From Kiritimatiellia bacterium (GTDB lineage Bacteria; Verrucomicrobiota; Kiritimatiellia; RFP12; UBA1067), in the NCBI GenBank assembly GCA_017432385.1, contig JAFRJH010000028.1:1-42661 (forward strand): a stretch of 42,661 nucleotides of DNA, given 5' to 3'. Below are positions 7,218 to 41,541 of this stretch, one piece after another; position 1 is the stretch's first letter; each line of letters starts with the position of its first letter. Under the pieces are notes generated by a model. That model worked only from the letters and a program-made list of their open reading frames with translations, searched no databases and had not been told where the DNA came from. The translations under genes were made by a program, and so were the position numbers.

Positions 7218-7253
7218 CAGGCGGCTTTCCCGTTTATCCCTCATTTGGGTGAT

Positions 7254-7281
7254 TTGCCGAATTCCGCCGTGATGCTATAAT
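7254..7281 (+). promoter_or_regulatory. sigma70-type promoter (-35 TTGCCG, 16-nt spacer, TGCTATAAT) of the long CAZyme operon
   Basis: ttgccg at 7254-7259 and tgctataat at 7273-7281. The ATG at 7291 lies 9 nt after the -10, with no SD. Confidence 0.55.
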
Positions 7282-9998: not shown

Positions 9999-10009
9999 TT
10001 GAAAGGAGC

Positions 10010-26531: not shown

Positions 26532-26633
26532 TCAAGACCGAGCCTTGCGCGCAGGCCAACGTCACGTGCGAAGTGCTGGCCGGCCGTCCTGTCTGCCACG
26601 GGGTTCCGTGGCCTCCCCCTCTGTTCGTAGGTA

Positions 26634-26662
26634 TTGGCAGACCCCTGCTCTAGTGGTACAAT
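26634..26662 (+). promoter_or_regulatory. sigma70-type promoter (-35 TTGGCA, 17-nt spacer, TGGTACAAT) of the rbsK operon
   Basis: ttggca at 26634-26639 and tggtacaat at 26654-26662. SD ggacggagg lies downstream, and the ATG is at 26703. Confidence 0.65.
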
Positions 26663-26702: not shown

Positions 26703-27602
26703 ATGGACAGGATAGTCGTTCTTGGCAGCACAAACACCGACATGGTTATAACCGCGGACCATCTGCCCGTTCCGGGCGAGACGATCTGCGACGGCAGCTT
26801 CAAGATGCACCCCGGGGGGAAGGGCGCGAACCAGGCCGTCGCCGTGGCGCGGCTTTCCGCGGAGCCGGGCGCGTGCGAGTTCATCGCGAAGGTGGGCGAC
26901 GACGTGTTCGGCCGCGAGACCGGCGAGCGGCTGCGCAGGGACGGAATCGCCGCGAACCTGATCGTCGACCCTGTCAATGCCTCGGGCACGGCGCTCATAC
27001 TCGTCGACTCGAAGGGACAGAACGTCATATCGGTCGCGCTCGGTGCGAACGGCGCGCTTTCGGAGGACGACATCTCGCCCTACATGGACGACATCCGCGC
27101 CGCGAAGGTTCTCCTCATGCAGCTCGAGACGCCCGTCCCGACCGTCGCCGCCGCGGCGGCGTGCGCGTACGCGGCGGGAACGACGGTCGTCCTGAACCCC
27201 GCGCCCGCGGCAAAACTGCCGCGCGAGCTTCTCGCGAACGTCGACTGGATCACGCCAAACGAGACCGAGGCGGAGATACTCACGGGCATCAAGGTGACCG
27301 ACGGAGCGTCCGCCCGGCAGGCGGCCGACGCGCTCAGGGCGCTTGGCGTAGGGCACGTCGTGATCACCATGGGCTCGAAGGGGTGCTACTCCGCCGACAC
27401 GGACGAGGTGTATCCGTGCCGCCCCGTGAAGGCGGTGGACTGCGTGGCGGCGGGCGACACGTTCAACGGCGGGTTCGTCGTCGCGCTCGCCGAAGGAAAG
27501 TCCGTCGCCGAGGCGATCGAGTTCGGCCAGAAAGCCGCGGCGATCTCCGTCACGCGCGTCGGCGCGCAGCCGTCCGTGCCGTACAGAGGGGAGATCGCCT
27601 GA
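26703..27602 (+). CDS. rbsK: ribokinase (PfkB family)
   Basis: IVVLGSTNTDMV...VPGETI...GGKGANQAVAVARL and the C-terminal VDCVAAGDTFNGGFVVAL...AAAISVTRVGAQPSVP (PfkB signature 2 with the catalytic Asp). Confidence 0.85.
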   Translation: MDRIVVLGSTNTDMVITADHLPVPGETICDGSFKMHPGGKGANQAVAVARLSAEPGACEFIAKVGDDVFGRETGERLRRDGIAANLIVDPVNASGTALILVDSKGQNVISVALGANGALSEDDISPYMDDIRAAKVLLMQLETPVPTVAAAAACAYAAGTTVVLNPAPAAKLPRELLANVDWITPNETEAEILTGIKVTDGASARQAADALRALGVGHVVITMGSKGCYSADTDEVYPCRPVKAVDCVAAGDTFNGGFVVALAEGKSVAEAIEFGQKAAAISVTRVGAQPSVPYRGEIA

Positions 27603-27604
27603 CC

Positions 27605-30600
27605 ATGCGCAGATTCGCCCTTGCCGCCGCCGCGCTGTCGTCGCTGGCTGCCTTCGCCGAGCCGACGCGCGTCATTTTCGACACGGACATGTGCGGCGAC
27701 TACGACGACGTTGGCGCGCTCGCCGTGCTGAACGCGCTCGCCGACGCCGGAGAATGCGAGATACTGGGCGTCGTCTCGTCCACGCGCAGGACGCCGGCGC
27801 TTGCCCTGTCTGGCGCCATCTGCGGGCACTACGGGCGGCCCTACGTCCCGATGGGCGCCTGCAGGGAGATCGGCGTCGTGGCGGACGACGATCCCGGCAG
27901 CGTCTCTGGCGTCCTTTGGTCGATTGCCAGGGCGCATGGGCCGCGCCACCTTCAGGATTCCGACGAGGCCGACGACGCGAACGAGGTCTACCGCTGCCTT
28001 CTCGCGGCGGCGCCGGACCACTCCGTCACGCTGTGCGTCGTCGGGTTCGCGACAAACGTCCGCCGGCTCCTCGAGACGAAGGGGGACTGCATTTCGCCGC
28101 TGTCGGGACGCGACCTCGTGGCCCGGAAGGTGAAGGCGTGGTACCAGATGGGAGGCGTGTTGCCAGGCGGCCTCGAATGCAACCTCCGCATGGACGCGGA
28201 GTCCTCCGACAAGGCGATCCGCGAATGCCCCGTGCCGATATACTTCGTCGACTTCGGCCTTGGCGTCGACGTGCTGACGGGGCTCTCCGTCGCGAGGCGG
28301 GGAATCGCGGCGGGCCCCGTTGCGGAGGCGTTTGCCCGGTGCCTGAAGGTCTGGGACGAGGAGCGCTGCGGACGCCCCTCGTGGGACGAGCTGACGGTGC
28401 TTGCGGCCGTGCGGGGGTGGGAGCGCGACTTCGGCCTCGAGCGCGGCACGATGTCCGTCGACCCCGCGACGGGGTCCAACACCTGGACGAAGGCGGAGAA
28501 CGGCCCGCACGGCGTCCTAGTGGAGAAGACGCCGAAGGCCGCCCTCCGCGACGTCATAGACGAACTGATGGCGCGTCCGCCGGCCTGCCGCAGCGAGGGC
28601 TCGAACTCAAAGCCGTTCGTCTGGTGGCACTGGTGCGGCACGGCCGTCACCAAGGAGGGGATAGTCCGCGACCTCGACGCCATGAAGGCGGCTGGCATCG
28701 GCGGGGCGACGATCTTCCAGGTCGCGCGGGGGCCGTGCTCCGAAGTTCCCGCGTTTGGATACGAAGACGATACGATGAAAGACTTTGAGTTCGGCGGCGA
28801 CAAATGGTGGGAATACGTCGCGTTCGCCGCGAGCGAGGCGAAGAGGCGCGGACTCGAGATTGGCATGCACAACTGCCCGGGCTACACCGTTTCCGGAGGT
28901 CCGTGGATAACGCCCGAGAATGCGATGAAGAAGCTCGTGTGGACCTCTGCGCCGAAGGGCTCCGCGCCCGCGCAGCCGGAGATGCTGCTCGGCTTCTACC
29001 GCGACATCGGTACTGTTGAAAGCGGCGGCAAGGTGTACCGCTTCGGCTACACATGCACGGGCTCGCAGTGCATGCCGGTCGCGAAGTCGCTTGTGGGCAG
29101 GTGCCTCGAGGCGGACAAGATGAGCGCAAGGGCCGTGAACCTCCATCTCGACAACGTCCTCGCAAGGGACGTCGGCCTCGACTTCATCCTCATGGACAGC
29201 TACGAAGCGGGTCCGTACGACTGGACGGACGACTTCCGCGCCGAGTTCGAGAAGCGCCGCGGCTACGACCCGCTGCCGCTTCTGCCGGCGTATGTCGGCG
29301 CAGTGTCCGAAGGCGCGGAGAAGATCAAGGCGGACATGGCCCGCACGGTCGCCGAGCTTTCGACGGAGCGCCACTACTGGGTGTTCCGCGACCGCATCCA
29401 CGAAAAGGGCATGCGGTTTTTCGTGGAGCCCTACGGCGGTCCGTTCGACCAGTGCGAGGCCGCGTACGCGAGCGACCAGCCCACGACCGAGTTCTGGGGC
29501 GCGAAGCCGTTCTGGGTGCAGGAAGGCGCAGTCGGCGGAAGTCCGCAGCTGGGCGGCGCCGTCGGGCGCGCCGCGGGCCGGACGGTCATTGCGGCTGAGG
29601 CGTACACCGCGATGCCGTTCCAGGATCCGTATGTCCTCGCGCCGCGCGACTTCAAGGCATGCACGGACGCGTCGTTCGCGCGCGGCATCAACCGCATGGT
29701 CCTCCACCACTGGGTGCACCAGCCTTTCCCGGCATGCCGCAGGCCGGGAATGAACATGGGCTACTGGGGCGCACACTTCGGCGAGAACCAGACGTGGTTC
29801 GAGCCGGGAAAGGAGTTCTTCGCGTATCTCTCGCGCTGCCAGGAGCGTCTGCAGCGGGGAGAGGAAATGATCGACGTGCTGGCGGTCGAGGAATTCGGCG
29901 GACGCACGGACGGCGTGGACATCTTGCCGCGCCGCGTCTTCAAGGGCGACGGCGTCTGCTTTTCCGACGGACGCTGCGTGGTGAGGCTTGTGGATGCGGC
30001 CGACGACGCATGCGAGGGCCAGCCGTCCCGCAGGACGCGCTCATACAGGTACCTCGCAGTGCCGCGCGGGCTTATGTCCGACCCGGAGATCGCCGCAAAG
30101 GTCGCCGCCGCAAAGGCCGCGGGCGTCGAGGTGCTTGACGAGACGAGTCCGATGCCCAAGCGTCCGTTCAGCGTCGTGGGAGGAGTGGAGGCCGGGCCGA
30201 ACGGACCCGTGCTAGGCGTGGCTCGGAAGTGCTTCAGACCAGGCTCGCAGCCATTTTTCTTTGTCGCAAACGTGTCCGGAGGGGCTGTCTCCTTCGACGC
30301 CGACTTCAGGGCCCAAGGGCAGGTGGACCTATGGTATCCCGGGAGCGGCGAGACGGAGATACTTGCGCCCGTTGAGCCGGACGGGGAATACACGCGCCTG
30401 CACATGTCTCTTGGACCGCAGGAGTCCGTCTTCGTGACGTTCCACTGCCAGGGCCGTTCGTTCGGCTCGCCCCCCATGCGAGAGTCGCGCCGCGCCGAGG
30501 CTTCGCGCGTGAAGCCGGTTGCGTGTCCGTGGACAGTCTCGTTCGCTTCGCCGTGCGGGGCCGCCGCGCCTGAGCGTGAGTGGCCGTCGCTCGCATCCTG

Positions 30601-31123
30601 GTCGGAGAGCGGGGAGCGTGATGTCCGCTACTTCTCGGGCACGGCCGTCTACCGGGCGAAGTTTGCGCTGACTCGCGAGGAGGCGAGGGCCGCGCGCAGG
30701 ATATGCCTCGGCGACGTGCGTGACATCGCGCGGGTGCGGCTCAACGGACGCGACCTCGGCGTCGCCTGGCACGAGCCGTTCGAGGTGGCGGCGTGCGACG
30801 CCGCGCGGGAAGGGGAGAACGTGCTCGAGGTGGAGGTGACGAACGGATGGCACAACAGGCTGCTGGGCGACCACCTGCTTCCGGACGACGACTGCGAGTG
30901 GGGACCGGAGCGCTTTCACCAGTGCGCTATGGACGGGTCGAAGGGCGCATGCGGAAGGGGGCTGAGGCGCATTCCGGACTGGGCGTGGAACGCGGATGGC
31001 GCACGCCCCGCCTCGAACCGCGTTGCGTTCACTAGCTGGGACTACTTCGTGGGCGGCGAGAAGCCTCGTCCCTCAGGCCTTCTCGGCCCCGTGACCGTAA
31101 AGCTCCTGGAGGCCGTGAAATGA
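27605..31123 (+). CDS. secreted fusion protein: N-terminal IUNH-fold domain + GH106-like (alpha-L-rhamnosidase-like) glycosidase with a C-terminal galactose-binding-like domain
   Basis: Signal peptide MRRFALAAAALSSLAAFA. RVIFDTDMCGDYDDVGAL is paralogous to 25482-26531. From about residue 340, PFVWWHWCGTAVTKEGIVRDLDAMKAAGIGGATIF, and a C-terminal YFSGTAVYRAKF...VRLNGRDLGVAWHEPFEV...GENVLEVEVTNGWHNRLLGD, a pattern I associate with GH106-type enzymes. The track start at 26873 runs through rbsK in another frame. Confidence 0.65.
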   Translation: MRRFALAAAALSSLAAFAEPTRVIFDTDMCGDYDDVGALAVLNALADAGECEILGVVSSTRRTPALALSGAICGHYGRPYVPMGACREIGVVADDDPGSVSGVLWSIARAHGPRHLQDSDEADDANEVYRCLLAAAPDHSVTLCVVGFATNVRRLLETKGDCISPLSGRDLVARKVKAWYQMGGVLPGGLECNLRMDAESSDKAIRECPVPIYFVDFGLGVDVLTGLSVARRGIAAGPVAEAFARCLKVWDEERCGRPSWDELTVLAAVRGWERDFGLERGTMSVDPATGSNTWTKAENGPHGVLVEKTPKAALRDVIDELMARPPACRSEGSNSKPFVWWHWCGTAVTKEGIVRDLDAMKAAGIGGATIFQVARGPCSEVPAFGYEDDTMKDFEFGGDKWWEYVAFAASEAKRRGLEIGMHNCPGYTVSGGPWITPENAMKKLVWTSAPKGSAPAQPEMLLGFYRDIGTVESGGKVYRFGYTCTGSQCMPVAKSLVGRCLEADKMSARAVNLHLDNVLARDVGLDFILMDSYEAGPYDWTDDFRAEFEKRRGYDPLPLLPAYVGAVSEGAEKIKADMARTVAELSTERHYWVFRDRIHEKGMRFFVEPYGGPFDQCEAAYASDQPTTEFWGAKPFWVQEGAVGGSPQLGGAVGRAAGRTVIAAEAYTAMPFQDPYVLAPRDFKACTDASFARGINRMVLHHWVHQPFPACRRPGMNMGYWGAHFGENQTWFEPGKEFFAYLSRCQERLQRGEEMIDVLAVEEFGGRTDGVDILPRRVFKGDGVCFSDGRCVVRLVDAADDACEGQPSRRTRSYRYLAVPRGLMSDPEIAAKVAAAKAAGVEVLDETSPMPKRPFSVVGGVEAGPNGPVLGVARKCFRPGSQPFFFVANVSGGAVSFDADFRAQGQVDLWYPGSGETEILAPVEPDGEYTRLHMSLGPQESVFVTFHCQGRSFGSPPMRESRRAEASRVKPVACPWTVSFASPCGAAAPEREWPSLASWSESGERDVRYFSGTAVYRAKFALTREEARAARRICLGDVRDIARVRLNGRDLGVAWHEPFEVAACDAAREGENVLEVEVTNGWHNRLLGDHLLPDDDCEWGPERFHQCAMDGSKGACGRGLRRIPDWAWNADGARPASNRVAFTSWDYFVGGEKPRPSGLLGPVTVKLLEAVK

Positions 31124-31147: not shown

Positions 31148-31771
31148 TTATATCTTGAGGAGGTGCTTGCGGAAGGCGATGGCGACGGCCTCGGCGCGGT
31201 TCGCCGCGCCTATTTTCGCGAAGGTGGTTTTCAGGTAGTCGCGCACGCTTGTCGCGCTGATGCCGAGCTTGTAGGCGATGTCCTCGTTGGTGAGCCCGAG
31301 CGAGACGAGCTCTATTATCTCTGTCTGGCGTGGGGAGAGCGGAGTGCAGGTGGCGCTGGACTTGAGCACCTGCTTGATTTCGTCCGAGACGAATATCTCG
31401 CCTTCGGCGACGGTGCGTATGGCGTTGAGGACGTCGTCCAGCTCTGCCTTCTTGACGATGGCGCCGCGGGCGCCTGCGTCGAGCGCGTGGCCGATGCCGT
31501 CGGCGGTCTCGTACGTCGTCAGGATGACGACCTTCGCCTCCGGCCATTTCTCGATCAGCGTCTTGGTCGCCTCCGCCCCGTCCATTACTCCGGGCATGAT
31601 GAGGTCCATGATCACGACGTCGGGCCTCAGAGATAGCGCCTTCTCGACTGCGGACGCGCCGTCGCCGGCGTCGCCAACGACCTTTATGCCGTTCGCCGTT
31701 CCAAGAAGCGAGGCGAGGCCCATCCTGAATATGGCGTGGTCGTCTACGAGGAGTACCGTTGTGTCCTTCAT
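31148..31771 (-). CDS. NarL/LuxR-family response regulator (REC + HTH)
   Basis: MKDTTVLLVDDHAIFRMGL...DVVIMDLIMPGMDG-type receiver domain. C-terminal LSPRQTEIIELVSLGLTNEDIAYKLGISATSVRDYL is a GerE/LuxR HTH. Its ATG overlaps the kinase stop (ATGA). The track ORF extends to 32230, but that part overlaps the kinase. Confidence 0.9.
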   Translation of the reverse strand: MKDTTVLLVDDHAIFRMGLASLLGTANGIKVVGDAGDGASAVEKALSLRPDVVIMDLIMPGVMDGAEATKTLIEKWPEAKVVILTTYETADGIGHALDAGARGAIVKKAELDDVLNAIRTVAEGEIFVSDEIKQVLKSSATCTPLSPRQTEIIELVSLGLTNEDIAYKLGISATSVRDYLKTTFAKIGAANRAEAVAIAFRKHLLKI

Positions 31772-33585
31772 GTCGCGTCTCCTTTGTGAAGCGGGATGGT
31801 GAGCACGGCCCTGGTCCCGCCGTGGGGCATGGCGGCGATCTCGAATTTCCCGGAGAGCGCGTCGACGCGCTCGCGCACGCCCATCAGCCCGAAGTGCCCC
31901 TCGGCGATCCTCGGGGCCGTGTCGGGGTTGTATCCCGAGCCGTTGTCCGAGACGGAGATGCGCAGTACGCCGTCCTCCGCGACGCCGGCTATCCTGATGT
32001 GGTCGGCTCCTCCGTGCTTGATGCCGTTCAGCGCCAGCTCGCGGACCACGCGCAGGATGGTATGCGCAGTGTTGTCGCAGATGCGCGACCTGGGGACGTT
32101 GAAGCGCACGTCGAGGGAGACTCCCTTCACGTGGGGCAACAACGTCCGGCGGACTGCCGCGGACATGTCGGACTCCTCGAGGGCCTCGCTCCTGAGGTCC
32201 CAGAGGCAGTTCCGCAGGTCCGCGTGGCACGAACGCAGCGTCCGCTCCGCGATGACGAGGTGGCGGGCTCGTTCCTCGTTATGCGATGGGGGGATGCGCT
32301 TGGCCGTCTCGAGCTCCATCAGGACGCCCGAGAGGCTCTGGACGATTGAGTCGTGCAGCTCGACGGCGAGACGCGTGCGCTCGCGGGTGCGCATGTCGGC
32401 CTCGGCGCGCGCGAGGATCTCCCGCGAGAGCTCGCGGCCGCGCCTGAACGCCTTGAACCAGAGGATGCGGTTCCAGAGGACGACGACTGCGAGGAACCCG
32501 CACAGCGCGGCGACGATGGACCATGCCCGCCCCGGGGTGAGCCACGGCGCGGTCGCCGTGACGCGGATGTCTTCGGGGAGGCTCGGGATGACGATGAGAC
32601 CGCGTATCCGCGGCAGAATCATGTCGGGCCGCCAGAAGTCTATGTCGAGGACGCATGTTCCCGTCACCTCCACGGTGCATCCGCGCGAGACGCGCTCCAG
32701 GGACCCCGTCACGGTTGACGCGTCAATGGTGATGAGGCGGTCTCCCTCTTCGATCTCGAAGCGACCGGAGTCGATGTCGGATATGCCGCGGACGATGCCA
32801 GAGAGCCGTATGACCTGTCCGTGCCGCTTCGACTGGTAGCACCGTTTGCCGCTGTCGTCCACGAGGAGGGACTTCGCGGTCACCGGCACCACGGAGCGCG
32901 AGAGGCCGACCGGCGCGTTCGTCGGCCGCCAGCGTGCGTGGGAGAGGCCTATGTTGTACGTGTCTGTCTCGACCGCGCCCACGGCCTCGACGGCGTCGCC
33001 GTATGCCGGCGGCTTCGCACCGGCCGACAGGCGGAGCGTGACGGGACGGCCGTCGAATGTCCTGATGAGGACGCTTCGTCCGCTCCAGACCGCGAGTACA
33101 TGGCCCGAAACGCGCCTTCGTCCGAGTCCGTGCAGCTCCTCCGGAAGCATGCCGTCGCGAAGCGACAGGACCGGCACGTCGAACGGATCCGGGTCGCCTC
33201 CCAGCGTGACGACGCCGCTTGGGTCGCTTACGGAGAACATCCTCCCGAGGTAGGCGCGGCTTACCAGCGAATACGTCGTGCGGACATTGCCATGGACCTC
33301 GACGTTGCGGCCTGCCAGGGAAAGGAGCCCTCTTGGGTCCTCCCCGTCGAACTTGACCGACACCAGCACCTTGCGGCCGTCGCTGTCGAGGATGTAGTAG
33401 AGGAACCTGGGGTCGACTTCGTCAAGGAATGCATCCTCGACAACGCCGCGAAGCCGCACTGAGTCGATGTTGCCATCCGACTTGAGGAATTCGTCGGACG
33501 AGAGCGGATGCTCGTCGGCGTGCGCCGCCGGCGTAGTCAGCGCCGCCAAGGCGGCAAGCAGATGTGCATTGAAAATCACATGCAT
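31768..33585 (-). CDS. sensor histidine kinase (HisKA_3 / HATPase_c) with a large periplasmic sensor domain
   Basis: Signal/TM1 MHVIFNAHLLAALAALTTPAAHA and TM2 WSIVAALCGFLAVVVLWNRILWF. H-box LAVELHDSIVQSL. ATPase motifs ELALNGIKHG, ISVSDNGSGY and GHFGLMGVRERV. The start is ambiguous: ATG 33585 or GTG 33579. The track start at 33657 would place the palindrome and promoter inside the coding sequence. Confidence 0.85.
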   Translation of the reverse strand: MHVIFNAHLLAALAALTTPAAHADEHPLSSDEFLKSDGNIDSVRLRGVVEDAFLDEVDPRFLYYILDSDGRKVLVSVKFDGEDPRGLLSLAGRNVEVHGNVRTTYSLVSRAYLGRMFSVSDPSGVVTLGGDPDPFDVPVLSLRDGMLPEELHGLGRRRVSGHVLAVWSGRSVLIRTFDGRPVTLRLSAGAKPPAYGDAVEAVGAVETDTYNIGLSHARWRPTNAPVGLSRSVVPVTAKSLLVDDSGKRCYQSKRHGQVIRLSGIVRGISDIDSGRFEIEEGDRLITIDASTVTGSLERVSRGCTVEVTGTCVLDIDFWRPDMILPRIRGLIVIPSLPEDIRVTATAPWLTPGRAWSIVAALCGFLAVVVLWNRILWFKAFRRGRELSREILARAEADMRTRERTRLAVELHDSIVQSLSGVLMELETAKRIPPSHNEERARHLVIAERTLRSCHADLRNCLWDLRSEALEESDMSAAVRRTLLPHVKGVSLDVRFNVPRSRICDNTAHTILRVVRELALNGIKHGGADHIRIAGVAEDGVLRISVSDNGSGYNPDTAPRIAEGHFGLMGVRERVDALSGKFEIAAMPHGGTRAVLTIPLHKGDAT

Positions 33586-33626
33586 AATTTTACCATAAAT
33601 CTGAGCGAAGTGGAGAGTCCGTCCGT

Positions 33627-33647
33627 CCCCTACTTTTGTAGGGGTTG
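33627..33647. promoter_or_regulatory. 7-4-7 palindromic operator/activator site CCCCTAC-TTTT-GTAGGGG(TTG), copy 1
   Basis: Perfect inverted repeat in the divergent intergenic region between the kinase and the beta-helix gene. It is 20/21 identical to 38669-38689. Confidence 0.6.
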
Positions 33648-33673
33648 CGCACCGCACACGCGGGTGCTACAAT
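33645..33673 (+). promoter_or_regulatory. sigma70-type promoter (-35 TTGCGC, 17-nt spacer, TGCTACAAT)
   Basis: ttgcgc at 33645-33650 and tgctacaat at 33665-33673. SD aaggag at 33696-33701 and ATG at 33710 lie downstream. Confidence 0.6.
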
Positions 33674-33709
33674 GGAGACGTCTTGAATGCACAAAAAGGA
33701 GTCGCCTCC

Positions 33710-35230
33710 ATGAAACGCAAAACACAGTCCCCGGCCTCGCTTTCGGTGTGCGTCCTCGCGTCGCTTGCCGCGGCCTTCGCGTCAGCCGCGACCTACGATG
33801 TCTCGACCGTCGACGATCTTTCCGATGCGGCTGCCCGCGCGAAGAGGGGCGATGTCATCCGCGTCGCCGCCGGGACGTATATGCTCTCCGCTACCGTAGA
33901 TGTTTCGAACGACGGTGTCTCGATGGTGTCGGCCGGCGGTAAGACGGACACCGTCCTCGACGGCGGCTCGGCCATCCGCATACTCGACGTGTCCGGCGCG
34001 GACTTCAGGGTCGAGGGCATTACCTTCAGGAACGGGCGCACCACGGGGAACGGCGGCGCAATCCGCTACAGCTCCTCGTCTGTGTCGCAGACGACCGTGG
34101 TCAAGGACTGCGACTTCATAGACTGCGTCGCGAAATACGGCGGCGCGATCTACGCCGGGCAGAACAGCTACGCGTCTTTTCTGCCGCGCGAAAACTACGG
34201 CGTCGTCCGCGGCTGGACGTTCCTCAGGTGCGGGATAGACTCGACCGGGACGTCCGACAGCCAGGGCGGCGGCGGCGGGATATGCGGCGCGCTGTGGGTT
34301 GAGGACAGCGTCTTCGACGCCTGCTTCTGCACGACGCACAATGTGCAGGAATACCATCTTGCAATCGACGTCCCGAGCTACACGACCATTACGAACTGCA
34401 TCTTCCGCAACCACACAAACATCACGCGTGGGCTGGTCGGGTCCAAGGAGCAGCGGGAGCAGCTGGGCTGCGCGCGGCTCGTCGACTGCCTCATAGCCAA
34501 CAACACGTCGACCGGACCAGATGACGTGCTGTTCCACCGCAAGGTGATCCTCGACCGCTGCGTCATATCGAACAACGCATCCACGGTAACTTCGGCGATT
34601 TCGTCGCTGTACAGGCTTGACGCCACCGGCGACAGGGGCTTCAGCAGGGCGACGAGCTGCCTTTTCGTCGACAACCAGTACCCGTTCAACATGGCCAACC
34701 TGCCTCCGATTCTGAACTGCACGTTCGTCCGCAACGTCGGCGGCCTCGCCTGCGATTACACGGAGTCGCTGAAGTTCGCGATTACCAACTGCGTCTTCTG
34801 GGGGAACACAGCGAAGGCCGATTGGCCGTTCAACGCATCCTACAAGGGCGCCCCGGGCCTCTACTGGCACCCCAACACGCAGCTTCAGGACTTTGCGCGG
34901 CTTGCGAACGTAGTAATCGACGGCGGGAACGAAAACGCGGACGTCGCGGGCGTCCTCGCGACCGATTCGTCGGGCCGCTCCACGCAGCTCACCGCGGCGG
35001 CGGCAGCGAACGGCCCCGGCTTCAAGGACGCCGCAAGCGGCGACTGGACGCTCCACAGGGTGTCCGTGCTGGTCGACGCCGGCGTGCTGCAGGACTGGAT
35101 GGCCGCGGCGTGCGACCTCGCCGGCAACCTGCGTTGCCTCCTCGACGGCAGGAAGGCCCCGTCCGCCGTCCCGGACATCGGGTGCTACGAATACCGCTCG
35201 ATGGCGGGCTTTGCGATCCGCATGCGCTGA
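33710..35230 (+). CDS. secreted right-handed parallel beta-helix protein with Pmp-like GGAI / FxxN-type repeats
   Basis: Signal peptide MKRKTQSPASLSVCVLASLAAAFASA. Repeats ITFRNGRTTGNGGAIRY, CDFIDCVAKYGGAIYA, CIFRNH, CLIANN, CVISNN, CLFVDN, CTFVRN and CVFWGN. DIGCYEY lies near the end, as in many beta-helix proteins. Ends MAGFAIRMR. Confidence 0.8.
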   Translation: MKRKTQSPASLSVCVLASLAAAFASAATYDVSTVDDLSDAAARAKRGDVIRVAAGTYMLSATVDVSNDGVSMVSAGGKTDTVLDGGSAIRILDVSGADFRVEGITFRNGRTTGNGGAIRYSSSSVSQTTVVKDCDFIDCVAKYGGAIYAGQNSYASFLPRENYGVVRGWTFLRCGIDSTGTSDSQGGGGGICGALWVEDSVFDACFCTTHNVQEYHLAIDVPSYTTITNCIFRNHTNITRGLVGSKEQREQLGCARLVDCLIANNTSTGPDDVLFHRKVILDRCVISNNASTVTSAISSLYRLDATGDRGFSRATSCLFVDNQYPFNMANLPPILNCTFVRNVGGLACDYTESLKFAITNCVFWGNTAKADWPFNASYKGAPGLYWHPNTQLQDFARLANVVIDGGNENADVAGVLATDSSGRSTQLTAAAAANGPGFKDAASGDWTLHRVSVLVDAGVLQDWMAAACDLAGNLRCLLDGRKAPSAVPDIGCYEYRSMAGFAIRMR

Positions 35231-35263
35231 GCATGGCCGGCTGCGCCCGTGTCTTTGGGGGGA

Positions 35264-35292
35264 TTGCGCCGTTTTGCGCTGTGGGCTATAAT
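35264..35292 (+). promoter_or_regulatory. sigma70-type promoter (-35 TTGCGC, 17-nt spacer, TATAAT)
   Basis: ttgcgc at 35264-35269 and tataat at 35287-35292. SD ggagga at 35323-35328 and ATG at 35335 lie downstream. Confidence 0.5.
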
Positions 35293-35334
35293 GGCGCCGA
35301 AACTAGCAGAACAGAATCTACTGGAGGACCTGAG

Positions 35335-38300
35335 ATGACGATGACGACAAGATGTCTTAGGGCGGCCGCGGTCCCTGCGGTTGCCTGCGCATTCGCCGCC
35401 TCGGCTTTCGCCGCGCCGTACGACTACGAGGTCGAGTACGTCAAGTCCGCGCACATGAGCGTCGTGAAGACCGATCTGCTGCCCGATTCAGGGCTCTCGT
35501 TCAGGATGGACGTCATGTTCGAAGGCCCCTACAACCAGATCTTCGGCGGCAAATTCGACATGGCGAAGCAGACGACCGTCTTCTTCGGGCAGGAGGATCC
35601 CGCTGACGCTGACAGGGGGCGCGGACTCTACCAGCTCGAGTTCGGAGGACACGAGGCGCAGGCCTTCCAGTCGTCCGCCAGCTTCGGCAGAAAGAGCCAG
35701 GGCAAGTGGACCCACTGCGGCACGCAGGAGCTAAACGACTCCGTGGTCGGATCGCGCATCTCGATCTCCTACGACGGCAGCCGCGTCAGCTGGGGCAGCT
35801 TCAGCATGAAGCTCGGGGGGGCTCGCACCGAATCCAGCAAGGTCCCCGTCTCCTTTTTCGGCATGACGCGCGCCGATGGGACGCCAAAGTCCTACGGCTG
35901 CTACGACATGACACTCTACGGCGCGACTTTCTACAGGGACGGCAAGCCCGTGGCCGAATTCATCCCGGTCGTGAAAGGCGGCGTCGCCGGGCTCTACGAG
36001 AAGGTCTCGAAGAAGTTCTACGCGAGCGCCACGCGGGTTCCGCTGTCGGCCGGCCCGAAGGTCGCGGCAAAGGGCAGGTCGAAGGGCAGGGCGAATGTCC
36101 GCGGAAAGAGGGAGGTCGACTTCTCGGTGCCGATCTTCGAGGACGACTTCACGAGCGACAAGCTCTTCGCCGAGCGCTGGGAGTTTCTTGGCCACGCTCA
36201 GAAGACCATCTCCATAAAGGACGGCGCGTGTCGCATTCCCAGCGGCACCACGGGCGACGGCATCCGCTGGAAGGGCGAGCTTCCCGACGAGTGCGCGGTC
36301 GAGGCTGACTTCGTGTGCTATCCGGAGTGGAGCGGGATAAAGGATCCGAAGGACGGCGACTACCACTGGGCCTCGATGGGATGCGACTGCGCGAACTACG
36401 GTGTCCGAAGCGACGGCTACGGCGTGAGCCTCTACAAGCCCGAGCCGAGCCAGCCGACGAGGAGCTGCTATCCGTGGATCGCGAACTTCAAGGAGCGCGA
36501 GCCGGTCACGGTGCGCTTCGAGCGCCGCAGGATCGGCGACAGCATGGTGGGCTACACCTTCCTGCTCAACGGGGTCAAGGTCAACTACTTCACCGCCCCC
36601 GCGCCGAAGAAGACGGTCGGCTTCGACGGCGTCGAGCGGTCGAATCCGCTCGTCATCGACAACTTCAACTGCCCGTTCGAGGTGCGGCGCGTGACGGTCT
36701 ACGCACTCCAGGGCGGCGACAGCCCGAACCTGATCGCCAACTCCGGCTTCGAGTTCGACAGCGACGGCGTCCCGCCGCACTACTGCAACCGCGGCTGGTG
36801 CGACATGGGCAGGGTCTCGGTCGAGGACTACAAGGAGAAGTACCTCAGGAGCTTCATGGTCGACAAGTCCGAGAAGCACTCGGGCAGCCAGTCGCTGCGG
36901 CTCAGGATAGGCCCGTTCATCCGCAGCCTGGACTTCTTCGCCTGGAACACGCCGACGCAGAAGGGCAGGAGCGGCGTCCTCTCCGTGTGGGCGAAGGCAT
37001 CCGAGCCGGGCGTGAAGCTCAAGCTCAAGGTCTCCAAGGACGCCAAGGTCGTGGACCTCACTACGGACTGGGCGCGCTACGAGGTCACGACGACCAATAT
37101 GCCGGCTCCGGGATACTTCAGCCCCGCGTGGTTCGAGGTCCCCGACGTCTCGAAGCGCACGACCGATGCCTCTATCTGGCTCGACGACCTGCAGCTCGAG
37201 ATGGTCGACGCGCCCGAGGGCGGCTTCGACCCCAACAAGACCTATGCGACGGAGTACAAGCCCAAGTCCGGCGACGCCGAGAACTTCACGCTCGGCAAGC
37301 CGACGCCGCACGCGAAGCCGGAGCGCACCGCCCCGCTTTCGCCCGCAGAGAACGCGCTCTGCGGATACACGCCGCCGAAGGAAGGGCTTCTCCTCGGCCA
37401 CTACGACTTCTACATGAACGAGAAGACGGCCGACTTCCGCGCATGGGACGGCAAGGGCGGCTTCGAGCAGGTGTCGCTCGACATCTCCGGCATGCCCTGC
37501 GGCACAAACGCCGTGATGGTGAAGGCCCTTGGACGCGACTGGAAGGCCGAGGTCCGCAAGCTTCCTTTCAGGAAGGGCGCGACGCAGATCAACCAGTGGT
37601 CGCGCACGCTCGTCCACGACGGCGAGAAGGTGTTCATGAGCGCGCCGTGCCTCATCGGGCGCGAGAACGCGCCGCAGGGAGACGGCACGTCCAAGCCGGT
37701 CGACATACTCTGCGACGCAGGTTTCAAGTACCTCAACCTCCAGAACAACCTGAACGTCCGCGACATCGAGATGAACCAGAAGACGTTCGCCTACGCCCGC
37801 AAGAAGGGAATGAAGTTCACCGTCTGGACTGGCGAGGGGCAGACTCTCGACGACGTCGGCGAGATCAGGCGGTGGGAGGACAACTCGGCCACGGACTGGT
37901 CGCGCCAGAAGATGTACGAGATGCTCGGCAGCGAGGACGTCATCAACTGGCTTGTCCTCGACGAGCCTGAGTACCGCAAGGCCGACGAGTGCAAGGCGTT
38001 CATGAAGCGCACGAAGGCGCTCTTCCCCTACAACCCGGTGCAGATGAACAACTGCTGGCTCGGCATCAGCGGACGGTTCGCCGGCCTCCCGACCGACATC
38101 CTGATGGTCGACTACTACCTCACCACCGACGGCACTACGATGGAGATGGTCGTCTCGAAGGTGGACGTCCTGAGGTCCATCGCGCCAGGCAAGCCCTGCT
38201 GGTACTTCATGGAGAGCGAGAATTCGCTCCATCCGCGGATCCCTTCCTACAAGGAGCAGATCGCGCAGTGCTGGGGCTCCGTCGCCGCGGGCGCCTCGGG

Positions 38301-38667
38301 GCTGTCGTGGTTCGTCAACATGCCGACTTCGCGCTGCTGCTATGACGCGCTCGTCGACATCAACCGCGAGCTCATGGACAACGTCGACTTCCTCTGCTCC
38401 GACGAACTCTGCGGCGGCGCGGTCGCGAGCGAGACGGAGAACTACATCCGCTGCCTCACCAGGAGGCACGGCGACGAGTGGCGCGTCTACACGGCCAACA
38501 TAAACCCCCACCCTAACGCGAAGGTGTCGTTCGCGCTCCCCGCCGACGTCCCTCAGGGCGCGAAGGTCGAGGTTATGTACGAGAACCGCTCGCTTCAGGC
38601 GAAGGACGGCGTCTTCTCCGACGCCTTTGACGGCTTCTCCCGCCACATATACCGCATCGCGAAGTGA
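35335..38667 (+). CDS. secreted multidomain protein (LamG/concanavalin-like + CBM-like + putative TIM-barrel glycosidase-like C-terminal region), function unknown
   Basis: Signal peptide MTMTTRCLRAAAVPAVACAFAASAFA. FEDDFTSDKLFAERWEF is the entry to a LamG/DUF1080-like domain. NLIANSGFEFD...GSQSLRL is a CBM4/22-like entry. WLVLDEPEY and WYFMESENS suggest GH-A-like acid/base and nucleophile strands. The track start at 34822 overlaps the upstream gene. Confidence 0.75.
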   Translation: MTMTTRCLRAAAVPAVACAFAASAFAAPYDYEVEYVKSAHMSVVKTDLLPDSGLSFRMDVMFEGPYNQIFGGKFDMAKQTTVFFGQEDPADADRGRGLYQLEFGGHEAQAFQSSASFGRKSQGKWTHCGTQELNDSVVGSRISISYDGSRVSWGSFSMKLGGARTESSKVPVSFFGMTRADGTPKSYGCYDMTLYGATFYRDGKPVAEFIPVVKGGVAGLYEKVSKKFYASATRVPLSAGPKVAAKGRSKGRANVRGKREVDFSVPIFEDDFTSDKLFAERWEFLGHAQKTISIKDGACRIPSGTTGDGIRWKGELPDECAVEADFVCYPEWSGIKDPKDGDYHWASMGCDCANYGVRSDGYGVSLYKPEPSQPTRSCYPWIANFKEREPVTVRFERRRIGDSMVGYTFLLNGVKVNYFTAPAPKKTVGFDGVERSNPLVIDNFNCPFEVRRVTVYALQGGDSPNLIANSGFEFDSDGVPPHYCNRGWCDMGRVSVEDYKEKYLRSFMVDKSEKHSGSQSLRLRIGPFIRSLDFFAWNTPTQKGRSGVLSVWAKASEPGVKLKLKVSKDAKVVDLTTDWARYEVTTTNMPAPGYFSPAWFEVPDVSKRTTDASIWLDDLQLEMVDAPEGGFDPNKTYATEYKPKSGDAENFTLGKPTPHAKPERTAPLSPAENALCGYTPPKEGLLLGHYDFYMNEKTADFRAWDGKGGFEQVSLDISGMPCGTNAVMVKALGRDWKAEVRKLPFRKGATQINQWSRTLVHDGEKVFMSAPCLIGRENAPQGDGTSKPVDILCDAGFKYLNLQNNLNVRDIEMNQKTFAYARKKGMKFTVWTGEGQTLDDVGEIRRWEDNSATDWSRQKMYEMLGSEDVINWLVLDEPEYRKADECKAFMKRTKALFPYNPVQMNNCWLGISGRFAGLPTDILMVDYYLTTDGTTMEMVVSKVDVLRSIAPGKPCWYFMESENSLHPRIPSYKEQIAQCWGSVAAGASGLSWFVNMPTSRCCYDALVDINRELMDNVDFLCSDELCGGAVASETENYIRCLTRRHGDEWRVYTANINPHPNAKVSFALPADVPQGAKVEVMYENRSLQAKDGVFSDAFDGFSRHIYRIAK

Positions 38668-38668
38668 C

Positions 38669-38689
38669 CCCTACATTTGTAGGGGTTGT
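38669..38689. promoter_or_regulatory. 7-4-7 palindromic site CCCCTAC-ATTT-GTAGGGG(TTG), copy 2 (may also act as a terminator hairpin)
   Basis: Begins 2 nt after the TGA at 38665-38667. It is 20/21 identical to 33627-33647 and has the same spacing to the downstream -35/-10. Confidence 0.6.
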
Positions 38690-38715
38690 TGGGCGTCGCT
38701 TTTTGGGGTTATAAT
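38687..38715 (+). promoter_or_regulatory. sigma70-type promoter (-35 TTGTTG, 17-nt spacer, TATAAT)
   Basis: ttgttg at 38687-38692 and tataat at 38710-38715. SD aaagga at 38734-38739 and ATG at 38749 lie downstream. Confidence 0.55.
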
Positions 38716-38748
38716 ACCAGTGTAAACCAATGCAAAGGAAGTGCGCCT

Positions 38749-41541
38749 ATGAAAGCAAGTAGCCTAAAATGGAATGGACGGTATGTCGCGGCGGCTCTTA
38801 CGGGTGCTGTTCTGGCCTTGGCTCTGACGGCTGGGGCCGCAGACCTCTGCTGGAACGGCGGCTCCGGCGATTCCCTTGCCGACCCCGCAAATTGGGGCGT
38901 GTACGGCGGGTCGTCCCCTGCAGGCCGCGTCCCGGGCAGTGGCGATACGATTTTCATTATAGCCAGCAGACCGTTGACGTTCTCGGTCGACAATGAGACC
39001 GACATGGCCGTGGTGAACGGCTGCCAAGGCATCCTTCTGAGGGAGAACAGCCCTGCCACGACATGCAACGTCGTCGTTCCACCAGGCGCGGACGCGGCCA
39101 TATCCGTGCCGATCTACGGCTACGAAAGGGGGCGCGGCACCCTCAACTTCAGCGGCTCCGGAACCGTTAGCCTGACCTCCGGCGGCAAGGCGGACTATGC
39201 CGCGCTCTATCTGAACATAGACGGCACCGAAGTGCTGCTTCCGCAGGGCGACGGCCTTTCAACAGGGGCGATTGTCTACGGACACGTGGCCGTATCCAAT
39301 GGCGGGACGCTTCACCTTCCGACTGGCCACAGTGGTTCGACCGGCAGCAACTACATAGACATGCTGTCGCTTTCCGGCGACGGCACGGTCACCGCTTCCG
39401 AGCAGACCGAACTGCGCCTTACCAACGGCGGAGGCGTGTTCTCGGGCGTTCTCGAGACGAACATCAGCCTCTGGGTGACAAAGGGCCGCCACGACCTCAC
39501 GGGCACGAACTCCACGATGAACGTCAGGTCGCCGCGTGTTTCCTTCGCCACCGCGAACTGGGCTAACGAAGGCTCCGCGGTGCTGGGCGTCGCGAAGATC
39601 GGCCGGAAGGGCGAGAATTCCTCGCTGGGACGAAAGAATGCATTCGACACCAACGTATCGGGTGGAACATACGTGTATCTGGGCGAGGGCGAGGAGACGG
39701 ACAAGGCCTTCTACGCCTACGCGCACGACGGCTACAGCGTGCTGGACGCCGGAGCCACGGGCGGCATCGTGTTCAAGGGCGCCGGCAGCGGCCTTGAAGG
39801 CGGCGGAAAGTCCGAGTACAACTGCATATTCGGCCTTTCCGGCTCCAATACCGTGCCGTGCGTCGTCAGGGGCAAGGTGACCGAGAGGTCGGCCAACGAC
39901 CTTGTGACGATTGTCAAGAAGGGGACAGGGACATGGCGCCTGGCGGACCCGGCGCTTGACGGACTCGCCGTGAAGGACAACCGCAATTTCCGCGGGGCGA
40001 TCTCCGTGGACGAAGGCGTGCTGCAGTTCGATACGGTCGCGCCGCCCAACGAGTACTGCTCCGTGGGCCTCGCGACCATGCGCAAGACGCCGCAGCTCGG
40101 GGTGTGGGCGACGCTCGCCGACGTGGACTGGGCGTTTTCGCTGGGCGGCACAAACGCCGCGCTCAACGCCTTGGCGGAAGGCACGCTTGAATACACGGGC
40201 ACGGAGGCAGCACTCGCGGACCGCCGCCCCGTAATCCTGAATGCGGACGGACGCCTGCGCGCGAACGCCGCGAAGAAGATTCGCTACCGACTTCTTCCGC
40301 CCGTCACGGCGTGCGCGAAGACGCTGTCGCTGGACGGCTCGTCGCTCGCAACGAACGAGGTCCACGACGTGACGGACACGGCGGAGAATCCCGTTTCCGT
40401 GGTCAAGGAAGGGCCCGGCACATGGCTTATGGGCGGCGACCTGTCGTTCCATGGCGCCCTTGCCGTCAAGGGCGGCAAGCTGATTGTGCGCGACTACGCC
40501 CCGGGCACGAACTATTCGTGGTTCCGCTTTACGGTCAAGAACCTGTTCGATCCTGTCGCCGCCGGCAGCAAGGGCAACGTATCGGTGTCCTTCCTGGGGC
40601 TCTTCGACGGAACCGGCCATTGCCAGACAATGGATGCGCTTTCGTCCGAGAACATGCTTGCGGCCTCCATTGAGCCGGGCGAGGCCGGCTACGAGACGAC
40701 GCGGGCGCATTCAAGGGGAGGCTACTCGTCCAATGGCTGGAACAACGACAACATCACCAACCTCTTCCGCAGTGCGGCAAACACCGTGTTTGATCTGAAC
40801 ATGAAGGACAAGGCCGGCGACGGCAGCTGCTATCCGCGGCTCGAGGACGAATCGTCCTGGCTCCCGCTTGTCGTTCGGCTCACCAACGGCGCGCCTGCGG
40901 TCGCGTCCTACGACTGGGTCACGACCTATGGCTGGGCCATGAAGAACAACGGAGGCTTCCACTGGATGCCGAACGTCTGGTCGCTCGAGGGCAGCGTGGA
41001 CGGAATGCACTGGGAAAACGTCAAGACGGACGGCGGAGACTATTCCATCTCCACGAACGACTGTGCGTCTGCCGCGAGTGACGGAACCTTCATATTCGCG
41101 GGCGTCGCGATGGATCGCGACTATGCCTTGTATTCCGCGAAGAGCCCCGTCAACCACATGAGCGGCTGCGCGATACGCGGGACCTCCACCAACTCATACG
41201 ACGTCCTGTCGAACGTCCGTTCTCTGCGCGTCGACGCCGGCGCGACGCTGGAGCTCGAGAACGTCGAGGCCACGTTCTCGAAGCTCGCCGTCGACATGTC
41301 CGTTGGCGGCGGGACAATCAAGGGCGCGGCGTTCGCCGGCAGCGGTTCCATTGACCTTCTGAACTACGTCCGCACCGGCAGTCAGTCTGTTTCAATCGAC
41401 CTCGAGTCTTCCTCGGGTACGTCGGGCATAAGGTCCTGGACGGTGTCGGTCGCGGGCCAGGTGGATCCTCGCCTGCGCGCCAAATACGCCAATGGCGTCC
41501 TTACTGTGCGTTCGGGCGGAATGTTCGTGGTCGTGAGGTAG
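38749..41541 (+). CDS. secreted autotransporter-associated beta-strand-repeat protein with a discoidin-like C-terminal region
   Basis: Signal peptide ...AAALTGAVLALALTAGA, then ADLCWNGGSGDSLADPANWGVY. Repeats of the type TIVKKGTGTWRLAD and VVKEGPGTWLMGGDLSFHGALAVKGGKLIV. WFRFTVKNLF...WSLEGSVDGMHWENV is F5/8-type-C-like. Ends SGGMFVVVR. Confidence 0.8.
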   Translation: MKASSLKWNGRYVAAALTGAVLALALTAGAADLCWNGGSGDSLADPANWGVYGGSSPAGRVPGSGDTIFIIASRPLTFSVDNETDMAVVNGCQGILLRENSPATTCNVVVPPGADAAISVPIYGYERGRGTLNFSGSGTVSLTSGGKADYAALYLNIDGTEVLLPQGDGLSTGAIVYGHVAVSNGGTLHLPTGHSGSTGSNYIDMLSLSGDGTVTASEQTELRLTNGGGVFSGVLETNISLWVTKGRHDLTGTNSTMNVRSPRVSFATANWANEGSAVLGVAKIGRKGENSSLGRKNAFDTNVSGGTYVYLGEGEETDKAFYAYAHDGYSVLDAGATGGIVFKGAGSGLEGGGKSEYNCIFGLSGSNTVPCVVRGKVTERSANDLVTIVKKGTGTWRLADPALDGLAVKDNRNFRGAISVDEGVLQFDTVAPPNEYCSVGLATMRKTPQLGVWATLADVDWAFSLGGTNAALNALAEGTLEYTGTEAALADRRPVILNADGRLRANAAKKIRYRLLPPVTACAKTLSLDGSSLATNEVHDVTDTAENPVSVVKEGPGTWLMGGDLSFHGALAVKGGKLIVRDYAPGTNYSWFRFTVKNLFDPVAAGSKGNVSVSFLGLFDGTGHCQTMDALSSENMLAASIEPGEAGYETTRAHSRGGYSSNGWNNDNITNLFRSAANTVFDLNMKDKAGDGSCYPRLEDESSWLPLVVRLTNGAPAVASYDWVTTYGWAMKNNGGFHWMPNVWSLEGSVDGMHWENVKTDGGDYSISTNDCASAASDGTFIFAGVAMDRDYALYSAKSPVNHMSGCAIRGTSTNSYDVLSNVRSLRVDAGATLELENVEATFSKLAVDMSVGGGTIKGAAFAGSGSIDLLNYVRTGSQSVSIDLESSSGTSGIRSWTVSVAGQVDPRLRAKYANGVLTVRSGGMFVVVR

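Follow-up and report, generated by a model that had tools for sequence, protein, structure and literature searches.

The window, that is, the whole stretch of 42,661 nucleotides that was analysed, contains the genes of a two-component system on one strand and three genes for secreted proteins on the other. The genes considered here are as follows.

31148..31771, minus strand: NarL/FixJ-type response regulator, the proposed binder of the palindrome described below; REC domain (D56), GerE helix-turn-helix, recognition helix ...ISATSVRDYLKTTFAKIG
31768..33585, minus strand: sensor histidine kinase; signal peptide, periplasmic region of ~320 aa, one transmembrane/coiled helix, HisKA_3 and HATPase_c
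33710..35230, plus strand: candidate target gene 1, a secreted right-handed beta-helix protein; weak matches to Beta_helix, Chondroitinase B and DUF5123; C-terminal ...GFAIRMR
35335..38667, plus strand: candidate target gene 2, a secreted 1110-aa protein with no family match, whose stop codon abuts copy 2 of the palindrome
38749..41541, plus strand: candidate target gene 3, a secreted 930-aa protein; one autotransporter-type beta-strand repeat (TIGR02601); C-terminal ...GMFVVVR

The regulator matches Response_reg (2.7e-24) and GerE (5.1e-14), its residues D56 and K107 are invariant, and its best NCBIfam match is NarL, with a score below the NarL cut-off. The kinase has the HisKA_3 H-box, and its structural model is confident (pLDDT 82.8). 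In particular, the periplasmic sensor (kinase residues ~40-345) is predicted to form about three consecutive beta-rich modules with pLDDT mostly between 80 and 90. No Pfam assignment was found for these modules, and in a PDB fold search with the kinase model, matches to the DesK-like cytoplasmic core dominated and none was informative for the periplasmic sensor. In some paralogues of the kinase, a faint OB-fold (tRNA_anti-codon) match to the sensor region was observed.

A short palindromic element occurs twice on the side of the secreted-protein genes. Copy 1, CCCCTAC TTTT GTAGGGG (33627-33644), and copy 2, CCCCTAC ATTT GTAGGGG (38668-38685), are both perfect 7-4-7 inverted repeats, and together with the trailing TTG they form the 21-mers CCCCTACTTTTGTAGGGGTTG (33627-33647) and CCCCTACATTTGTAGGGGTTG (38668-38688), which are identical at 20 of 21 positions. 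An earlier note on this DNA had reported such a pair of near-identical 21-mers, and the two copies are indeed the sole matches to the pattern CCCCTACNNNNGTAGGGG in the 42.6 kb when up to two mismatches are allowed on both strands; copy 2, which the note had placed at 38669-38689, starts one base lower, at 38668. For the same search, 0.09 matches are expected from shuffled sequence, and two were reached in 1 of 100 shuffles. Allowing three mismatches adds one further match, within a coding region and at chance level. Copy 1 lies, as had been described, in the divergent region between the kinase/regulator genes (minus strand) and the signal-peptide-bearing beta-helix gene 33710-35230. Copy 2 likewise precedes a gene for a secreted protein, 38749-41541, in which one autotransporter-type beta-strand repeat was matched.

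Both copies have the same orientation, with TTG and then a -10 element downstream. The operators and promoters predicted from this arrangement are listed below, with scores from a position weight matrix (PWM) built from nine sites.

33627..33644, plus strand: predicted operator copy 1; PWM 36.5 bits; kept in the orthologous loci L001, L005, L006 and L029-L032
33645..33673, plus strand: predicted promoter of target gene 1; TTGCGC 33645-33650, 17-nt spacer, TG 33665-33666, TACAAT 33668-33673
38668..38685, plus strand: predicted operator copy 2; PWM 37.0 bits; begins right after the TGA of the upstream gene
38686..38715, plus strand: predicted promoter of target gene 3; TTGTTG 38686-38691, 18-nt spacer, TATAAT 38710-38715

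The palindrome abuts the TTG directly and is separated from the -10 by 23 nt at copy 1 and 24 nt at copy 2, gaps that coincide with a family-wide peak (see below); hence, the -35/-10 spacers are 17 and 18 nt, respectively. The TTG does open a -35-like hexamer, as had been proposed, and the 17-nt spacer attributed to both promoters holds for that of copy 1 only. The dyad centre, formerly put at 31 nt from the -10 in both copies and at about -43, lies 32.5 nt (copy 1) and 33.5 nt (copy 2) from the first base of the -10, which corresponds to approx. -44.5 and -45.5 on condition that the -10 spans -12 to -7, the predicted start site being assumed 7 nt past the -10. Shine-Dalgarno-like sequences (AAGGAG/AAGGAAG) are followed by the start codons at 33710 and 38749.

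A palindrome of this kind might act as a nucleic-acid structure, either as a REP-like repeat or as an RNA hairpin with a terminating or stabilising effect on the upstream transcript. The hairpin RNA would be stable (-16.6 and -20.8 kcal/mol for 44-nt segments, z = -3.1 and -4.2), and copy 2, situated right after a stop codon, as well as the sites of loci L013/L020 and L019, follow co-directional genes. However, a terminator scan does not call the palindrome, and the stem is followed by TTGCGC or TTGTTGGG instead of a U-tract. Moreover, no Rfam covariance-model match to a known structured RNA was found in 33300-39000 at E<=1. Copy 1 and most sites of the wider family are located between divergent genes and upstream of both -10s, and are therefore unlikely to be transcribed. 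An intrinsic terminator was rejected on account of the negative scan, the missing U-tract, and the position of copy 1 between divergent genes; a secondary, minor terminator role is possible for copy 2. The copies are also few and all promoter-associated, and the TTG flank gives each a set orientation relative to the gene that follows. Taken as a whole, a function as nucleic-acid structure is highly improbable.

The part of this explanation that concerns repeats was addressed in a collection containing one genome per species (596 Gb), which was scanned for the exact pattern CCCCTACNTTNGTAGGGNTTG, so that the counts cover strict exact matches only. There were 18 matches, the rough chance estimate being ~17. 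All seven of those in Kiritimatiellae or rumen 'RUG' MAGs combine the palindrome, the TTG, 16 or 17 nt, TAnAAT, and a co-oriented downstream gene; the promoter geometry was absent from the CCCCTACNTTNGTAGGGNTTG matches in other phyla. The earlier note had named a genome-wide search as the means to recognize a REP-like element, and scatter of that type was not found. With two copies in 42.6 kb, at most two exact matches per Kiritimatiellae/rumen MAG, and promoter association throughout, a REP- or BIME-like repeat was rejected. The genes downstream of the MAG sites encode large surface-type proteins or a beta-lactamase-family protein. Between the target at one of these sites (L019, 1725-6083) and the 930-aa target of the window there is no homology, and the content of the regulon thus appears to be only partly conserved.

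The element is also conserved at orthologous loci. Divergent regions next to kinases that are 53-92% identical to that of the window (92, 60, 55, and 53% in the contigs first compared) keep the arrangement, with palindrome, TTG, and -10 at the same place, in the form CCCCTAC-(T/A)TT(T/C)-GTAGGGA-TTG-N17/18-TA(C/T)AAT. In the orthologue whose kinase is 60% identical, the palindrome copy is degenerate. Metagenome loci L029-L032 contribute three further orthologues. In an alignment of eight such regions, the invariant columns are those of the palindrome, the TTG, and G..G.TA.AAT, with two A columns in the leader as the exceptions; elsewhere, in the spacer, the leader, and the flank towards the kinase, the sequences have drifted apart. 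The kinases behind this footprint are 92, 58, 57, 55, and 53% identical. Phylogenetic footprinting in relatives, which had been suggested as a check, therefore gave the expected picture: palindrome, TTG, and -10 were kept while the flanks diverged. The named kinase homologues are annotated as Kiritimatiellae, most homologues come from ENA and Logan metagenome assemblies, and the sample labels of these assemblies look like those of ruminant-gut studies.

Paralogous systems, in which the kinase is ~40% identical, carry different palindromes at the same position. Two examples are the following.

L028: TTCCCTC ATTT GAGGGAA-TTG-17-TATAAT
L025: CCCCTTA AGGT AAAGGGG-TTTCAG-17-TAAAAT

To cover the family, 80 loci were fetched by kinase homology alone, and all fetched loci together with the window were scanned for a 7-4-7 palindrome with no more than one mismatch that is followed by TAnnnT at 22-24 nt. 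The 78 family loci contain 45 C-rich 7-4-7 palindromes that have a -10 at 22-25 nt to one side or both, compared with 2-10 (about 5) in twenty dinucleotide shuffles of the same loci. At least one such site is present in 37 of the 78 loci, and in 28 of the 61 loci with enough upstream DNA, it lies within 800 nt of the start of the kinase alignment; about half of these 61 loci thus lack a site under the strict criteria, which counts against a role throughout the family. With a strict -10 (TA.[AT]AT), the gaps cluster sharply at 23 nt towards the target gene (17 sites) and at 24 nt towards the kinase gene (10 sites); in the latter direction, a minor group of -10s is located at 33-35 nt, approximately one helical turn farther. 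At thirteen sites, a -10 follows at 22-25 nt in either direction, so that one symmetric site stands between two back-to-back promoters. Family-wide, the -10 is strong, and the -35 region shows little conservation, being weak or absent in many cases.

Several loci depart from this pattern. L026 has only a degenerate CCCT-N9-AGGG. In L025 and L027, an AAA_14/DUF4143 ATPase gene (2725-3954 and 2402-3757, respectively) is inserted between the two-component system and the palindrome promoter, so that the L027 site lies past the inserted gene; these are unrelated paralogue loci, and in their relatives L018 and L103 the system and the promoter are adjacent. In L058, whose regulator has the helix VRDHTT, three CCCCTAC AAYT GTAGGG(G/A) promoters stand in a row, at distances of ~355, 1774, and 2557 nt before the point where the kinase alignment starts, an arrangement that resembles the multi-promoter regulon of the window.

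The variety of palindromes allowed them to be compared with the regulators encoded next to them. A 20-residue segment covering the recognition helix of the kinase-adjacent regulator was tabulated against the nearest palindrome, and several of the classes are given below.

Helix VRDYLK: CCCTAC..GTAGGG
Helix VKEHVES: CCCCCAC/CTC..GTGGGGG
Helix VKEHV(A/N)ATF: CCCCTTC AAAA GAAGGGG
Helix VN(E/D)HV: CCCCCTA/CATA..TATGGGG
Helix VKSHIKI: TTCCCTC AMAT GAGGGAA

The same or similar helices go with the same palindrome arms. In a set of 30 different helix/arm combinations, the distance between helices correlates with that between arms (Mantel r 0.58, reached in 0 of 5000 permutations, a count that is not a true probability because adjacent DNA and protein share ancestry). 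The mean number of arm mismatches (of 14) rises from 0.8 at 0-2 helix differences to 6.7 at 12 or more. The helix classes VRDYLK, VKEHLT, and VRDHTT share the half-site CCCCTAC with different central tetranucleotides; helix-to-arm specificity is thus not one-to-one.

These data bear on the question of which protein binds the palindrome. It could be another dimeric protein encoded elsewhere, the linkage to the two-component system being only positional. Such a binder would account for the sharing of the CCCCTAC half-site by different regulator classes, and also for the sites of MAG202 and Tb.RUG.298, around which no two-component system was found within the 8-kb loci; one of the MAG sites does adjoin a two-component system. 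Nevertheless, an unlinked binder is disfavoured because the arms covary with the adjacent regulator, the class of the palindrome tracking its helix over the 30 combinations. In addition, most loci have the site in the divergent region next to the kinase, and no different DNA-binding gene is consistently linked in the loci examined. We regard a binder of this kind as improbable, if somewhat less so than a structural role of the element.

Taken together, these observations point to CCCCTAC-N4-GTAGGG(G/A) as the operator of the adjacent NarL/FixJ-type regulator 31148-31771 and, more precisely, as an activator site of the class II type, a reading to which we assign a probability of roughly 0.78. 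The data show the sequence, geometry, and conservation of the element, its association with promoters, its recurrence in the family, and its covariation with the helix, whereas binding by the adjacent regulator, activation, start sites, and signal are inferred. The proposal that a regulator operator lies at the -35 of a local secreted-protein regulon is supported by the comparative evidence of the footprint, the promoter-linked matches, and the covariation with the helix; the identical geometry claimed for the two copies has to be given up. In all, the element is most likely an ordinary kind of bacterial regulator switch in an uncultured, rumen-type Kiritimatiellae bacterium.

According to the proposed mechanism, the periplasmic sensor kinase 31768-33585 would detect a signal, probably a glycan-related one, and phosphorylate the regulator. 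The regulator would then dimerise, with each GerE helix-turn-helix reading one CCCTAC half-site, and the dimer would occupy the site at approx. -53 to -36, against a weak -35 of which only the TTG is conserved. From this position it may recruit RNA polymerase in class II fashion to a -10 that is near-consensus and often TG-extended. The predicted geometry is compatible with a class II site, for which a centre near -41.5 to -45 and a poor -35, abutted or overlapped, would be expected. The promoters of 33710-35230 and 38749-41541 would be driven strongly; 35335-38667 and the 26703/GH106 operon (see below) would probably be driven weakly or in a vestigial manner. The divergent kinase promoter may be under the control of this symmetric site as well.

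The operator of this regulator could also repress, if a dimer at the -35, phosphorylated or unphosphorylated, blocked the access of sigma region 4 or alpha-CTD until a signal relieved it. The site abuts the TTG of the -35, a protein that occupies -53 to -36 might conceivably act as a repressor, and near-consensus -10s, often TG-extended, might work without an activator. On the other hand, there is no case of overlap between the site and the -10 or the predicted start site, and a constant 23/24 nt separates the site from the -10 in many classes of paralogues, a good number of which have a weak -35 or none. Moreover, activation is the usual effect of LuxR- and NarL-type proteins bound at such a position. 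The fixed upstream position, the lack of overlap with the -10 or the start site, and the poor -35 across classes favour activation over repression, and weak -35s combined with strong -10s are as expected for activator-dependent promoters. Repression is therefore unlikely, although it is less remote than either of the two alternatives discussed above.

Under the activator reading, autoregulation has to be judged separately for the window and for its relatives. In the window, the -10 candidates on the kinase side (minus strand) are TATGGT (33597-33592) and TAAAAT (33592-33587), 29 and 34 nt from the palindrome. TATGGT is kept in L001, and the kinase ATG (33585) lies 6 nt past it, which suggests that the kinase mRNA may be leaderless in the lineage of the window. 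In the 53-58% orthologues, TGnTATAAT stands on the kinase side at 24 nt from the palindrome, with a leader of ~25 nt. Thus, the autoregulation postulated in the earlier note is likely in distant orthologues, and in the window, with candidates at 29 and 34 nt, it is possible.

Considered across paralogues, the architecture allows a wider and more tentative interpretation, to which we give somewhat less than even odds. In a large and hitherto undescribed family of two-component systems of rumen-type Kiritimatiellae, a single C4-N3-N4-N3-G4 palindrome may stand 23 nt away from the -10 of the target gene and 24 nt from that of the kinase gene, the latter sometimes one helical turn farther, so that one dimer would activate both promoters; the three inner bases of each half-site and the C/G register would then form a code, matched to the recognition helix, that limits cross-talk among dozens of paralogous glycan-sensing circuits per genome.

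The closest parallels are found among other GerE/LuxR-type regulators. In the lux box, which is an inverted repeat of 20 bp, the centre lies at -42.5 (PMC3376562). Lux and tra boxes resemble the present site in that an inverted repeat of 18-20 bp is bound by a dimer of GerE/LuxR-type helix-turn-helix proteins and abuts or overlaps a weak -35, the centre here being predicted at about -44.5 rather than -42.5. They differ in the protein, which is an acyl-homoserine-lactone receptor instead of a phosphorylation-controlled REC-domain regulator, and in the sequence of the palindrome, which is unrelated. The divergent promoters of traA and traC, moreover, share one tra box.

E. coli NarL recognizes 7-2-7 heptamers (TACYYMT-N2-AKRRGTA). 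The two systems have in common the regulator family, a HisKA_3 kinase of the NarX/NarQ type, and C/G-rich heptamer inverted repeats with a TA. However, the NarL heptamer is TACCCCT, with the TA outermost, a 7-2-7 spacing, and multiple variable sites, whereas here it is CCCCTAC, with the TA on the inside, a 7-4-7 spacing, and a single fixed site. Identity with the NarL heptamers was rejected because half-site register and spacing differ from the NarL consensus.

The boxes of DosR/DevR, RcsB, and ComA (TTGCGG-N4-CCGCAA) are dyad-symmetric dimer sites just upstream of the -35, and that of ComA has a 4-bp centre as well. Sequence, phylum (here Kiritimatiellae), and sensor are different, and here one architecture extends across dozens of paralogues with systematically varied half-sites.

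In terms of gene neighbourhood, the locus resembles the control of polysaccharide utilization loci (PULs) in Bacteroidota by hybrid two-component systems and SusR, where the sensor/regulator is likewise encoded beside glycan-degrading and surface genes. The glycan-type genes are GH106 and the beta-helix, lyase-like gene in the window, and GH28, GH31, GH2, and GH92 in paralogue loci. In contrast to the Bacteroidota systems, which have a hybrid kinase and an AraC output, a two-protein system with a GerE output is present here, and there are no SusC/D genes. In Pontiella, HisKA_3 kinases and regulators have been described beside GH and sulfatase genes (PMC10880615). In the open-access literature, no cis-element or operator was found described for two-component systems of Kiritimatiellae. 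If correct, the present reading would provide the first prediction of a cis-element and a regulon for the HisKA_3/GerE systems that stand beside glycan-degrading genes in Kiritimatiellae. Members of this group are uncultured and abundant in gut and rumen, and we know of no genetics for them. The table of helices and half-sites would supply data for a DNA-recognition code of GerE-type helix-turn-helix proteins and for assigning target genes to sensors from metagenomes. Since a dimeric regulator at a class II position is textbook knowledge, a specialist will find the element useful rather than surprising; the added value lies in the family-wide and apparently programmable architecture.

Two weaker sites that the earlier note had omitted are also present in the window.

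35246..35292, plus strand: degenerate third site; CCCGTGT CTTT GGGGGGA 35246-35263, TTGCGC 35264-35269, 17 nt, TATAAT 35287-35292
26616..26662, plus strand: tentative, weak fourth site; CCCCTCT GTTC GTAGGTA 26616-26633, TTGGCA, 17 nt, TACAAT 26657-26662

The third site lies upstream of gene 35335-38667 and scores less than 8 bits. At the same position, the 92% relative L029 has an intact CACCTAC GATT GTAGGGA with TTGCGC-17-TATAAT, and in L006, CCCCTGC TTTT GTAGGGA TTG-23-TACAAT is found upstream of a 77%-identical homologue of 35335-38667. The fourth site scores 19.8 bits, compared with a shuffle maximum of 16.5 (1 of 20 shuffles), and has its -10 at exactly 23 nt. It is located upstream of ORF 26703-27602 and of the gene with GH106 and IU_nuc_hydro domains (26873-31123). 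From these predictions, the local regulon would consist of two strongly controlled genes and two doubtful ones.

The GH106/IU_nuc_hydro ORF (1416 aa, GTG at 26873) overlaps the 299-aa ORF 26703-27602 in a different frame, and its orthologues are only 1155-1181 aa long. Overlap and length indicate that the true start of the GH106 gene is probably near 27580 and that 26703-27602 is a distinct upstream gene.

A further sequence of related form, ATCCCTC ATTT GGGTGAT followed by TTGCCG, 16 nt, and TATAAT, occurs at 7236-7281. As its left arm matches the operator class TTCCCTC AMAT GAGGGAA (L028/L064/L096), it could be a decayed or weak site that belongs to a different two-component system, whose genes would lie beyond the window.

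Four secreted proteins end in a shared tail, G(F/M)x(V/I)x(V/M)R-stop, in the following forms, given in the order of their positions.

13445-13471, in ORF 9995-13471: GFLVFVR
16055-16081, in ORF 13514-16081: GMAVYVR
35204-35230, in ORF 33710-35230: GFAIRMR
41515-41541, in ORF 38749-41541: GMFVVVR

The tail may be a C-terminal sorting signal or beta-signal. A shared tail does exist, as had been stated, yet it does not mark the regulon: it is also present on the palindrome-less 9995-13471 and 13514-16081 and is absent from 35335-38667. ORFs 9995-13471 and 13514-16081 have stretches of 75-76% identity near their 3' ends (12587-13004 vs 15164-15611), and the G+C content is 0.48 at 14001-15000, within ORF 13514-16081, vs ~0.65 elsewhere. 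The shared 3' stretches suggest that the two ORFs are tandem paralogues with one divergent low-GC segment.
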